This document shows positions 19,973 to 32,549 of a stretch of DNA of 64,000 nt, piece by piece. The DNA is taken from the NCBI RefSeq assembly GCF_053078305.1, contig NZ_CP166879.1, one strand, 5' to 3'. Every line of letters begins with the position of its first letter. Within the stretch, counting starts at the first letter, position 1. The translations under genes and the position numbers were made by a program. The notes under the pieces were generated by a model, which saw only the letters and a list, made by a program, of their open reading frames with translations, made no database searches and was not told the DNA's origin.

Positions 19973-20518
19973 GTAAAGAACCTTCTTCACATCGTGCAGA
20001 ACGTACAAAACTGTTCATTTTTCAATCACCAGAGATTCACGCCCCGTACGCACAAATAATCGCCTGAAAAAAATCACCTGCTACAATGATGTTAAAAAAT
20101 AAGTAAATTTGTTGCTGCGTTTTTGTTATGGAATGACAAAAGCGTGTCACAGATCAAGAAAATACTCTCTTTTGGGGGGAGGAATCGACACAAATTCCTG
20201 TCAAAATAGACCTGTATTTTTTCCATTGCTTCACAACGGACACGATTCAACAACATCTAATTATCCTGGAGTCGTCAAGGATCTGGGGTGAAAGGGCATT
20301 AAATGCTAATGGTGTTGATATTATGTAAACTAATGTGAAGAAACTTTTGTTAAAGTTGACAAAAGGTTATAGAAAGGAGTAAAAGACCACATCAATTAGC
20401 TGTATAAAAGAATTTCTACAGTGATTGTAAGGTTTTTTTTATTCCTCCCCATGAATCGATGTGGCGTCCATCTGCCGTGAAGAGCAGTGAATCTGGCGCT
20501 ACTTTTGATGAGTAAGCA
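19973..20518 (+). promoter_or_regulatory. nuo operon promoter/leader region
   Basis: ~550-bp AT-rich non-coding region upstream of nuoA; location only, individual promoter elements not resolved. Confidence 0.5.
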
Positions 20519-20962
20519 ATGAGTATGTCAACATCCACTGAAGTCATCGCTCATCACTGGGCATTCGCTATCTTTCTTATCGTTGCCATTGGCCTGTGTT
20601 GCCTGATGCTGGTAGGCGGTTGGTTTTTAGGCGGTCGCGCACGCGCGAGGTCAAAAAACGTGCCGTTTGAATCCGGTATCGACTCGGTCGGCTCCGCCCG
20701 CTTACGCCTGTCCGCTAAGTTTTATCTGGTGGCCATGTTCTTCGTTATCTTCGACGTTGAAGCGCTGTATCTGTTCGCATGGTCAACCTCTATCCGCGAA
20801 AGCGGCTGGGTAGGCTTTGTGGAAGCTGCAATTTTTATTTTTGTGTTACTGGCAGGTCTGGTTTATCTGGTGCGTATTGGCGCGCTGGACTGGACGCCCG
20901 CGCGTTCACGCCGCGAGCGTATGAACCCGGAAACGAACAGTATCGCTAATCGTCAACGCTAA
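20519..20962 (+). CDS. nuoA: NADH-quinone oxidoreductase subunit A
   Basis: 147-aa membrane protein, first gene of a 13-gene complex I cluster. Confidence 0.95.
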
Positions 20963-20977
20963 CCGCGAGGCATTAAG

Positions 20978-21640
20978 ATGGATTATACGCTCACCCGCAT
21001 AGATCCCAACGGTGAGAACGACCGTTACCCCCTGCAAAAGCAGGAGATCGTAACCGACCCTCTGGAGCAAGAAGTTAACAAAAACGTGTTTATGGGCAAG
21101 CTCAATGACATGGTTAACTGGGGTCGTAAAAACTCAATTTGGCCGTATAACTTCGGTCTTTCCTGCTGTTACGTTGAGATGGTGACTTCGTTTACCGCGG
21201 TGCATGACGTGGCGCGTTTTGGCGCAGAAGTATTGCGTGCTTCGCCGCGTCAGGCTGACCTGATGGTGGTTGCAGGAACCTGCTTTACCAAAATGGCACC
21301 GGTTATTCAGCGTCTGTATGACCAGATGCTGGAACCAAAATGGGTTATCTCAATGGGTGCCTGTGCCAACTCTGGCGGTATGTACGATATTTATTCCGTT
21401 GTGCAGGGCGTCGATAAATTCATCCCGGTTGATGTGTATATCCCGGGCTGCCCGCCGCGTCCTGAAGCGTACATGCAGGCACTGATGCTGTTGCAGGAAT
21501 CTATCGGTAAAGAACGTCGTCCGCTCTCCTGGGTGGTTGGCGATCAGGGCGTTTATCGCGCCAATATGCAATCAGAGCGCGAACGCAAGCGCGGTGAACG
21601 CATTGCCGTAACCAACCTGCGTACACCTGACGAGATTTAA
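20978..21640 (+). CDS. nuoB: NADH-quinone oxidoreductase subunit B
   Basis: 220 aa; Fe-S cysteine motifs (CCY...GACANSGG...PGCPP). Confidence 0.95.
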
Positions 21641-21643
21641 TTT

Positions 21644-21714
21644 GCGCCTGTCGGCAAAGGGATTTTTCTTCGCTTATTCCTAAATCTATTTCGCGAAGCT
21701 TACTGCGCCGACAG
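21644..21714 (+). other. Nested inverted repeats in nuoB-nuoC spacer (potential mRNA stem-loop)
   Basis: ctgtcggc (21648-21655) pairs with gccgacag (21707-21714); inner cttcgc (21668-21673) pairs with gcgaag (21693-21698). Confidence 0.4.
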
Positions 21715-21733
21715 TCACCACGGACCATTTGCA

Positions 21734-23536
21734 ATGGTGAACAATATGACCGACTTAACCGCGCAAGAACCCGCCTGGCAGACCCGCGATCATCTTGATG
21801 ATCCGGTGATTGGCGAACTGCGCAACCGTTTTGGGCCGGATGCCTTTACTGTTCAGGCGACTCGCACCGGGGTTCCCGTTGTGTGGATCAAGCGTGAACA
21901 ATTACTGGAAGTGGGCGATTTCTTAAAGAAACTGCCGAAACCTTACGTCATGCTGTTTGACTTACACGGCATGGACGAACGTCTGCGCACACACCGCGAA
22001 GGGTTACCTGCCGCGGATTTTTCCGTTTTCTACCATCTGATTTCTATCGATCGTAACCGCGACATCATGCTGAAGGTGGCGCTGGCAGAAAACGACCTGC
22101 ACGTACCGACCTTCACCAAACTGTTCCCGAACGCTAACTGGTATGAGCGTGAAACCTGGGATCTGTTTGGCATTACATTCGACGGTCACCCGAACCTGCG
22201 CCGCATCATGATGCCGCAAACCTGGAAAGGTCACCCGCTGCGTAAAGATTACCCGGCGCGCGCTACCGAATTCTCGCCGTTTGAGCTGACCAAAGCCAAA
22301 CAGGATCTGGAGATGGAAGCCCTGACCTTCAAACCGGAAGAGTGGGGGATGAAGCGCGGCACCGAAAACGAGGACTTCATGTTCCTCAACCTCGGTCCGA
22401 ACCACCCGTCGGCGCACGGGGCTTTCCGTATCGTTCTGCAACTCGACGGCGAAGAGATTGTCGACTGCGTGCCAGACATCGGCTACCACCACCGTGGTGC
22501 GGAGAAAATGGGCGAACGCCAGTCCTGGCACAGCTACATTCCGTATACCGACCGTATCGAATACCTCGGCGGCTGCGTTAACGAAATGCCTTACGTGCTG
22601 GCGGTAGAGAAACTGGCCGGGATCACCGTGCCGGATCGCGTTAACGTCATTCGCGTAATGCTCTCCGAACTGTTCCGCATCAACAGCCACCTGCTGTATA
22701 TCTCGACCTTTATTCAGGACGTCGGCGCAATGACGCCCGTGTTCTTCGCCTTTACCGATCGTCAGAAAATTTACGATCTGGTGGAAGCGATCACGGGTTT
22801 CCGTATGCACCCGGCGTGGTTCCGTATTGGCGGCGTAGCGCACGACCTGCCGCGCGGCTGGGATCGTCTGCTGCGTGAGTTCCTCGACTGGATGCCGAAA
22901 CGTCTGGCGTCTTACGAGAAAGCGGCGCTGCAAAATACCATTCTGAAAGGTCGTTCCCAGGGCGTTGCCGCCTATGGCGCGAAAGAGGCGCTGGAGTGGG
23001 GCACCACTGGCGCGGGCCTGCGTGCTACCGGGATCGACTTCGACGTGCGTAAGGCGCGTCCTTATTCTGGCTATGAAAACTTCGACTTTGAAATCCCGGT
23101 TGGTGGTGGTGTTTCTGACTGCTACACCCGCGTAATGCTGAAAGTGGAAGAGCTGCGCCAGAGTCTGCGCATTCTTGAGCAGTGCCTCAACAACATGCCG
23201 GAAGGCCCGTTCAAAGCGGATCACCCGCTGACCACGCCACCGCCGAAAGAGCGCACGCTGCAACATATCGAAACCCTGATCACCCACTTCCTGCAAGTGT
23301 CGTGGGGGCCGGTGATGCCTGCCAATGAATCTTTCCAGATGATTGAGGCGACCAAGGGGATCAACAGTTACTACCTGACCAGCGACGGTAGCACCATGAG
23401 TTATCGCACTCGTATCCGCACGCCGAGTTATGCGCATTTGCAGCAAATTCCGGCGGCGATCCGCGGCAGCCTGGTGTCTGACCTGATTGTTTATCTGGGC
23501 AGTATCGATTTTGTTATGTCAGATGTGGACCGCTAA
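21734..23536 (+). CDS. nuoC: NADH-quinone oxidoreductase subunit C/D (fused NuoCD)
   Basis: 600 aa, fused 30-kDa and 49-kDa subunit domains as in E. coli. Confidence 0.95.
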
Positions 23537-25373: not shown

Positions 25374-25419
25374 CCGAATTTCGATTAACGCTCAGTCTCT
25401 GACTGAGAAAACTGGAAGC

Positions 25420-32386: not shown

Positions 32387-32425
32387 GTTAAGGATTGTGG
32401 GATTGCCCCTGGGCATATAAGAACG

Positions 32426-32462
32426 TAGGTCGGATAAGCCTCCTTCGCGGTGCATCCGACAC
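32426..32462. repeat. Degenerate REP-like palindromic element in nuoL-nuoM spacer
   Basis: Reverse complement gtgtcggatgcaccgcgaaggaggcttatccgacctac resembles the REP consensus (…GGATGC…CTTATCCGGCCTAC). Confidence 0.4.
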
Positions 32463-32549
32463 TACCCCCAGTCCGAAGAGAATTTTCTGTCGTGAGAATT
32501 CGTTGAAAATCCGGTCCTGACGGGACTTTTACAAGGAATAAAGATCGCC

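Follow-up and report, generated by a model that had tools for sequence, protein, structure and literature searches.

The gap between nuoB and nuoC in the Escherichia coli nuo operon, which encodes NADH dehydrogenase I (respiratory complex I), is a conserved, structured mRNA leader of nuoC. The stretch analysed (here called the window) comprises 64,000 nucleotides (nt) of contig NZ_CP166879.1 from NCBI RefSeq assembly GCF_053078305.1; it includes the start of the operon, and the leader extends from approximately position 21641 to 21766, counted from the first letter of the window. The element is a conserved intercistronic mRNA structure that is uncurated, absent from Rfam 15, and sister to the nuoG RNA of the same operon. 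Comparison across related genomes makes it very probable that the structure is selected, and that it is selected on the sense strand. As to function, we favor a cis-acting, RNA-level housekeeping insulator that provides a folded ribosome-free gap and a fixed nuoC start site, rather than a device that sets subunit stoichiometry, and assign this reading a probability of roughly 0.45.

The first-pass annotation reported two nested inverted repeats in the spacer. Both are present: the outer repeat, CTGTCGGC (21648-21655) and GCCGACAG (21707-21714), is 8 nt long and perfect, with its arms 51 nt apart, and the inner repeat, CTTCGC (21668-21673) and GCGAAG (21693-21698), is 6 nt long and perfect, with a 19-nt loop. 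The nested pairing is also the minimum free energy (MFE) fold. The two stems form the lower (P1) and upper (P2) ends of a single long hairpin, which belongs to a fold of about 105-125 bases that fills the nuoB-nuoC gap. The middle of P1 has decayed to two pairs in E. coli, so P1 and P2 were first seen as separate stems. Thus, the stems exist as described, but they are only part of the element: a third hairpin (P3) was missed, and the long hairpin of E. coli is a weakened copy.

Taken by itself, the E. coli sequence is weak evidence for structure, and comparison is decisive. Among 5000 dinucleotide-preserving shuffles of the 93-nt spacer, 145 contained a perfect 8-bp inverted repeat, and seven contained an 8-bp repeat with a 6-bp repeat nested inside it. 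Nested repeats of this kind are unusual for one spacer, but not across the thousands of spacers of a genome. The fold z-score is unremarkable for the 93-nt form of the spacer (-0.66) and moderate for the 105-nt form (-2.05), which adds the third hairpin.

We extracted nuoB-nuoC spacers from 80 loci, one genome per species and all but one from Enterobacteriaceae, which yielded 71 distinct sequences. Spacer length is 95-105 nt, except in four species with insertions. Unconstrained single-sequence MFE predictions for the 71 distinct spacers have a common P1-P2-P3 architecture, in which the long hairpin consists of the lower stem P1, a variable loop of 7-9 nt on the 5' side only, the upper stem P2 and an apical loop of about 19 nt. 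The long arm (P1 plus P2) has a median of 18 bp. In 70 of 71 orthologues the GGU of the nuoC Shine-Dalgarno (SD) sequence is paired to an upstream CACC. The sequence of P1 varies while its pairing is kept (e.g., CUGUCGGC/GCCGACAG, CUGUGGGU...ACCCGACAG and GCCUGG/CCAGGC). The median fold z-score over 72 orthologous spacers is -2.0.

RNAalifold applied to a plain MAFFT alignment recovered P2 and P3. P1 was not recovered because indels shift its two strands out of register in that alignment. This register problem was solved by hand-annotating the structure on a seed alignment of 22 sequences, from which a covariance model (R1) was built and 72 sequences were realigned. On the plain, in-register MAFFT alignment of 22 sequences, 98.5% of cells pair, versus 28-42% when the partner strand is slid. 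In the R1 alignment 95.8% of cells pair (27-57% in slid-partner controls) and 14 of 24 pairs have compensatory changes (108 cells), figures that are somewhat inflated by the fitting of the alignment to the model and for which the independent single-sequence folds provide a safeguard. None of 500 shuffles reached the observed value on any of five measures. G-U or U-G cells number 70, versus 20 A-C or C-A cells, which places the structure on the sense strand, in the mRNA; an antisense-strand RNA is disfavored by the same count. The first-pass annotation had proposed an mRNA structure and suggested looking for pairing potential in orthologous spacers. That potential is clearly conserved throughout the Enterobacteriaceae, with pairing kept by compensatory changes, and the proposal of a structure acting in the mRNA is borne out to this extent.

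All parts of the element are on the plus strand of the window. Immediately past the nuoB stop codon (TAA, 21638..21640) is the conserved 5' flank UUUGCGC (21641..21647), which is at least 90% conserved in the 71 spacers (UGCGC in 66 of 71). The first 8 nt past the stop codon, UUUGCGCC, are almost invariant, and so are the ~35 nt leading up to the start codon, with P3, its loop and the SD; adjacent third codon positions of nuoB have 63% pairwise identity. The flank is followed by the 5' strand of P1, CUGUCGGC (21648..21655), which is the outer stem reported at first and has equivalent columns that covary in the orthologues; compensatory changes occur in six of the eight pairs of this helix (helix 1). 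Positions 21656..21667 form the degenerate middle of P1 and the 5' internal loop in the MFE fold. Only A21658-U21704 and G21659-C21703 are paired here in E. coli, where most genera have four to five further pairs (helix 2; e.g., GUGG/CCAC, CCUGG/CCAGG) and then the variable 7-9-nt loop.

The nearly invariant 5' strand of P2 (CUUCGC, 21668..21673; the inner stem reported at first) and its 3' strand (GCGAAG, 21693..21698) enclose a terminal loop of 19 nt that is A/U-rich and partly conserved (21674..21692). In P2, 99.8% of cells pair, and rare compensatory variants occur in two loci (CGUCGC/GCGACG in L033 and CUCCGC/GCGGAG in L068). The 3' side of the degenerate P1 middle (21699..21706) has extra bases in Escherichia relative to the family consensus, as judged from the structure-fitted alignment and the MFE fold, and leads into the 3' strand of P1, GCCGACAG (21707..21714).

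P3 directly abuts P1, with no intervening nucleotide. Its 5' arm, UCACCA (21715..21720), is invariant in the orthologues and pairs with 21735-40; its loop, CGGACCAUUUGCAA (21721..21734), is near-invariant except at position 21727; and its 3' arm, UGGUGA (21735..21740), holds the nuoC SD, GGUGA (21736-40). The 3' end of 16S rRNA is 5'-GAUCACCUCCUUA-3' and includes UCACC, the anti-SD. The UCACC of the P3 5' arm is identical to it, an anti-SD mimic, and the mRNA would thus compete with the ribosome for its own SD. P3 alone is predicted to fold at -6.6 kcal/mol, with an unpaired probability of about 0.01 for the GGU. None of the six pairs of P3 (helix 4) has a compensatory change: four are constant in all sequences, a fifth changes on a single side, and the sixth deviates through unpaired cells alone. 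This invariance is neutral with regard to pairing. An alternative hairpin (ACCAUU/AAUGGU, 21724-29/21733-38) was considered and rejected, as it is broken by the sole variable position of the region, 21727.

The hexamer GCGCAA in nuoC codons 6-7 (21761..21766) is complementary to UUGCGC at 21642-47, and the two pair in the MFE fold of 180 nt; the unpaired probability of 21642-46 is 0.00-0.12. If it forms, this putative helix (P0) would be the closing stem of a three-helix domain that contains the SD and the start codon. The pairing of the 5' flank with nuoC recurs in the MFE fold of 65 of 71 orthologues, and in Mangrovibacter both strands have been lost jointly. Synonymous sites in this part of nuoC are constrained: codon 6 is GCG in 69 of 71 sequences and codon 4 is TTA in all 71.

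The genes around the element are nuoA (20519-20962), nuoB (20978-21640, plus strand; the open reading frame translates to NuoB and is annotated as nuoB in E. coli genomes) and nuoC, a fused nuoCD gene that runs to 23536. Records differ in the start of nuoC. In the MG1655 record it is the ATG at 21746..21748 (MG1655 position 2403845 corresponds to 21746), which gives a spacer of 105 nt, and in other records, including the RefSeq record of W3110, it is the in-frame ATG at 21734-36, which gives 93 nt. The K-12 spacer is identical to that of the window. The two ATGs (within 21734-21748) predict MVNNM-TDL versus M-TDL, and databases and PDB depositors are split between a 600-aa and a 596-aa form of NuoCD. 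Read from sequence, an Erwinia locus (L067) in which the upstream ATG is out of frame and GGTGA is kept favors the start at 21746. Both ATGs lie in or just past P3; the nuoC start, at 21734 or 21746, sits inside the structure, which is relevant to annotation and to the design of NuoCD expression constructs. In Escherichia the spacer (21641-21733) is free of stop codons in the frame shared by nuoB and nuoC, and a single TAA parts the two genes. Such an opening is expected by chance in about 23% of 31-codon stretches. A small protein-coding open reading frame in the spacer was rejected, because the frame is open only in Escherichia; in other genera it contains stop codons, and spacer lengths differ by numbers not divisible by three.

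A 300-base stretch around the stems occurs once in 5423 of 5426 complete E. coli genomes, with at least 99% identity in all but one. Sensitive blastn searches (E <= 10) found the element in one place per genome in the 5423 genomes. This rules out repeated extragenic palindromes, i.e., REP (repetitive extragenic palindromic), BIME (bacterial interspersed mosaic) and ERIC (enterobacterial repetitive intergenic consensus) elements. The R1 model matches every sampled Enterobacteriaceae locus. No match was found at the junction in an Erwinia metagenome-assembled genome, in Morganella, Plesiomonas and Pseudomonas, or in two further relatives; the corresponding gaps contain unrelated hairpins (e.g., in Morganella, Erwinia and Pseudomonas) or, in Plesiomonas, are just 26 nt long.

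The four species with longer spacers carry partly self-structured insertions of 55-120 nt in the loops, and the stems are intact. In L062 (~1005-1164) and L071 (~1021-1165) the insertions are approximately 110-120 nt long and lie in the P2 loop, and in two Siccibacter loci (L066 and L074) an insertion of ~55 nt is in the 5' internal loop (~1062-1137). The insertion in L062, a Citrobacter sp., is about 82% identical over 76 nt to an ERIC consensus and is thus ERIC-like. Elsewhere in the window, R1 has a weak, chance-level match at 47410-47475 (15.3 bits, E = 0.47).

A search of 21000-22400 with the 4227 covariance models of Rfam 15 returned only two chance-level matches to eukaryotic families, both inside nuoC (E = 4 and 8.7), and RF01748, the nuoG RNA, has no match in this interval even at E <= 10 (its gathering score is 33 bits). 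The only gathering-level Rfam match in the 64-kb window is the nuoG RNA itself (50.3 bits, 25376-25418). Full-text literature searches found no published description of the nuoB-nuoC structure. The element is not an intrinsic (Rho-independent) terminator, since a scan of 21300-22100 was empty and P1 is followed by UCACCACGGACC rather than by a U tract.

Published transcriptome-wide data include the junction. Dar & Sorek (2018; PMC5927463) analysed 390 operons, from which those with internal start sites or terminators had been filtered out; nuo is one of the 390 but does not appear in their table of 47 operons with differential decay. Under three growth conditions, no Term-seq 3' end was assigned to nuoB or nuoC, and none is listed between a point 200 nt before nuoC and the nuoC stop codon (Adams et al., 2021; PMC7815308). 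The mRNA levels of nuoB and nuoC are equal (484 vs 466), with translation efficiencies of 0.90 vs 0.67 and ribosome densities of 436 vs 311 (Burkhardt et al., 2017). The first-pass annotation had suggested a processing or stability element, which the decay and 3'-end data disfavor, and an adjustment of subunit stoichiometry, which the equal mRNA levels disfavor.

A "Rho termination region" was mapped to MG1655 position 2403831 on the minus strand, which is window position 21760, 14 nt into nuoC (Adams et al., 2021, supplementary file 2; PMC7815308). Reads upstream and downstream of this position numbered 483 and 310 in untreated cells and 593 and 573 with the Rho inhibitor bicyclomycin, so that bicyclomycin raised the downstream/upstream ratio from 0.64 to 0.97 (score 1.51, p = 1.35e-5). 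Thus, in the published data, read-through increases on Rho inhibition, as expected for a Rho-dependent attenuator, and the effect is weak. As regards a loading site for Rho, there are 30 C vs 25 G from P3 to position +70 of nuoC, and the greater part of the spacer is predicted to pair.

Two known post-transcriptional regulators were considered and rejected for this junction. For CsrA, Potts et al. (2017) reported a CLIP (cross-linking and immunoprecipitation) peak on the nuoG RNA and nuoG start region, and none is named for nuoB or nuoC; an upstream GGA is, by eye, missing in several genera (e.g., Citrobacter and Kluyvera). RyhB represses the whole nuo operon, with nuoA as the predicted target (Wang et al., 2015), and nothing in its action is specific to nuoC.

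We propose that the element acts as an insulator within the transcript. An unusually long ribosome-free stretch in a 15-kb operon would be kept folded, which would limit Rho loading and RNase attack, and the nuoC start site would be shown in one fixed local fold, so that initiation would be about equal regardless of upstream events. The modest Rho-dependent drop at the junction would then be residual leakage past the insulator. The hairpins would also place the nuoB stop near the nuoC start in space (7 nt, two helix bases and 5 nt), which may aid the hand-over of ribosomes. Counted in favor of the insulator are the equal mRNA across the gap, the ordinary translation efficiencies, the lack of differential decay and of a stable 3' end, and the bicyclomycin-sensitive drop that maps 14 nt into nuoC. 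So are the freedom of P1 to change sequence if it stays paired, the acceptance of structured insertions by the loops, and the occurrence of unrelated hairpins in other lineages. Among junctions in the operon, three gaps exceed 40 nt (nuoB-nuoC, nuoF-nuoG with the nuoG RNA, and nuoL-nuoM) and all have hairpins; the other junctions are 15 nt or less, or overlapping.

Several points weigh against the insulator. The Rho score (1.5) is modest, below the two-fold guide used by the authors themselves, and derives from 800-nt windows (PMC7815308). With 27 C vs 22 G in 105 nt, the spacer lacks a clear C-rich, G-poor bias. The near-invariance of the P2 stem, the 5' flank UUUGCGCC and the P3 loop suggests a specific partner and is not explained by selection merely to stay folded. 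Opening the nuoC start region is predicted to cost 8.2 kcal/mol, an ordinary value among nuo genes (range 6.6 to 15.0), so P3 is not an unusual barrier. The covariation figures carry the inflation noted above, and literature searches found no experiments on the nuoB-nuoC element.

The invariant parts leave room for a second reading, a regulated operator, to which a trans-acting protein, small RNA or metabolite would bind (at the P2 stem and loop, the 5' flank and the P3 loop) and so shift the occlusion of the nuoC ribosome-binding site, with Rho-dependent polarity carrying the decision to nuoC-N. The sequence invariance of these parts exceeds the needs of pairing, the SD is predicted to be occluded, a Rho-sensitive region is at the junction, and the sister nuoG RNA, which overlaps a CsrA CLIP-seq peak, is a precedent for protein control at nuo gaps. 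However, no CsrA peak is named for nuoB or nuoC, the RyhB effect is operon-wide, the internal loop varies, and either loop can take up large insertions. In addition, no alternative conserved fold was found (the competing hairpin fails at 21727) and no partner is known. We consider such an operator unlikely. It is somewhat less probable still that the junction works as a checkpoint, at which a protein, small RNA or metabolite would read the invariant P2, flank and P3 loop and toggle the anti-SD/SD hairpin, with Rho polarity splitting the operon into nuoAB and nuoC-N. If this were true, complex I synthesis would be controlled module by module at long intercistronic gaps, the nuoG RNA included.

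The first-pass annotation also raised translational coupling. A link to nuoC translation is plausible, given that the long hairpin abuts the invariant, SD-occluding P3, but coupling by unmasking has little support. In a coupling device, the hairpins and P0 (21642-47 with 21761-66) would bring the nuoB stop beside the nuoC start, and a terminating ribosome would open P0 and the base of P1 and move to nuoC over a linear distance of 105 nt. The 5' strand of P0 is 2-7 nt past the stop codon, within the expected footprint of a terminating ribosome, and P0 is predicted in 65 of 71 orthologues, with both strands absent from Mangrovibacter. Synonymous sites of nuoC codons 4-6 are frozen, and P1 and P3 abut. 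However, when a ribosome was simulated on the nuoB stop, the nuoC start region was predicted to become easier to open by just 0.1-0.6 kcal/mol, a negligible effect on which we rejected unmasking. P0 lacks covariation because both its strands are invariant, which also counts against coupling. Ribosome density is unequal (436 for nuoB, 311 for nuoC), and the conservation of GCG and TTA could be an ordinary start-region constraint. Coupling is thus a doubtful explanation. A comparable case is the infC-rpmI-rplT operon, where translational coupling is mediated by long-range structure. As there, pairing of a cistron end with the next start region could tie downstream initiation to upstream translation, but the long-range helix P0 is short, invariant and putative, and its predicted energetic effect is small.

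A processing or stability element is a shade more doubtful. Cleavage by RNase E or RNase III at or near the hairpin, with the hairpin protecting one product, would set nuoAB versus nuoC-N levels. The geometry is loosely like that of known substrates (an 18-22 bp stacked helix with an asymmetric internal loop). RNase E prefers RN|WUU, and AA|UUU at 21639-43 fits this preference. Intergenic regions inside transcripts are enriched for RNase III sites (PMC6212723). However, nuo does not decay differentially, no Term-seq 3' end is near the hairpin, and nuoB and nuoC mRNA are equal. All Nuo subunits are 1:1 in the complex, so there is no stoichiometric need for such a device. Protective hairpins of the malE-malF type (Dar & Sorek, 2018; PMC5927463) are similarly stable, conserved and placed in an intra-operon gap, but nuo lacks the differential decay, the stable 3' end just past the hairpin and the unequal mRNA that accompany them.

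An intercistronic RNA thermometer, in which P3 would melt with temperature and tune nuoC translation, is very unlikely. A short SD-occluding intercistronic hairpin is a known layout for such devices (e.g., yscW-lcrF; PMC6992388) and P3 is stable by only -6.6 kcal/mol, but P3 is a perfect 6-bp helix and has neither the mismatches nor the U-rich pairing that thermometers typically show. Moreover, nuoB serves as a non-thermoregulated reference gene in Yersinia (PMC6992388), and nothing indicates separate thermoregulation of complex I subunits. More generally, the element resembles SD-sequestering hairpins (translational operators and yscW-lcrF thermometers) in the predicted pairing of the downstream SD within a local hairpin. 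It differs in that P3 is perfect and invariant, its 5' arm copies the 16S anti-SD, no signal is known, and the opening cost is ordinary.

A DNA-level element, either an internal promoter or a protein-binding palindrome, is equally hard to support. Genomic SELEX (systematic evolution of ligands by exponential enrichment) detected in vitro binding of RNA polymerase-sigma70 between nuoB and nuoC, listed as an "internal promoter" (Shimada et al., 2014; PMC3946193). However, no sigma-70 promoter hexamers (-35 and -10 with 16-18-bp spacing) were found in 21300-22100, nuo passed the filter that removed operons with internal start sites (PMC5927463), and the pairing-preserving covariation, including G-U, points to RNA. 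That the stems have no function, as chance palindromes or the relic of an old insertion, is the least credible proposal: the E. coli copy alone is thermodynamically unremarkable and the middle of P1 has decayed, but compensatory changes preserve the architecture in many Enterobacteriaceae genera, and nearly all of 5423 E. coli genomes carry the spacer with a conservation of 99% or more.

Returning to the proposed insulator, a mechanistic comparison can be made with Rho-dependent attenuation (Adams et al., 2021; PMC7815308). The junction shares with it a ribosome-free stretch of more than 50 nt and bicyclomycin-sensitive read-through at its end; unlike typical cases, the effect is weak (score 1.5) and the RNA is mostly folded and not clearly C-rich. 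The weak score and the folded, not clearly C-rich RNA fit a Rho-restraining structure better than a Rho-recruiting one.

The closest relative within the operon is the nuoG RNA (RF01748), a candidate cis-regulator of unknown function that was described without mention of nuoB or nuoC (Weinberg et al., 2010; PMC2864571). It is located at 25376-25418 in the nuoF-nuoG gap, 3.6 kb downstream of the nuoB-nuoC element, and is likewise an Enterobacterales-restricted hairpin with conserved single-stranded flanks, placed between an upstream stop codon and the next ribosome-binding site. The two have no similarity in sequence or by model. The nuoG RNA is 43 nt long, with one 7-bp hairpin that does not include an SD, whereas the nuoB-nuoC element is ~105-125 nt long, with three or four helices, one of which occludes an SD. 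The nuoG RNA overlaps a CsrA CLIP peak and the nuoB-nuoC element does not. That peak (peak_224; MG1655 2400056-2400198, minus strand; Potts et al., 2017) starts inside the nuoG RNA hairpin and spans the nuoG start as well as a conserved CUGGAAG, which makes CsrA a candidate for the missing partner of the nuoG RNA.

Two further observations concern other junctions of the operon. The nuoL-nuoM gap (32387-32549), at 163 nt the longest of the operon, has a fold z-score of -2.0 and contains a palindrome, GTAGGTCGGATAAG...CATCCGACACTAC, which is judged to be REP-like. Upstream of nuoA, at window positions ~20505-20509 (10-14 nt before the nuoA ATG at 20519), there are very abundant Term-seq 3' ends, classed as orphan; they map to MG1655 2405086 and 2405082, have up to ~476,000 reads (Adams et al., 2021; PMC7815308), and suggest a stable RNA that terminates just before nuoA.

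The nuoB-nuoC element, the largest structured non-coding element in the textbook 13-gene operon of a heavily studied enzyme, appears to be uncatalogued. With the covariance model R1 now available, the family could be curated. The presence of a hairpin in every long ribosome-free gap of nuo suggests a general rule, in which long operons shield their untranslated gaps from Rho and RNases, and the nuoB-nuoC locus would be a clean place to test this rule of gap protection.

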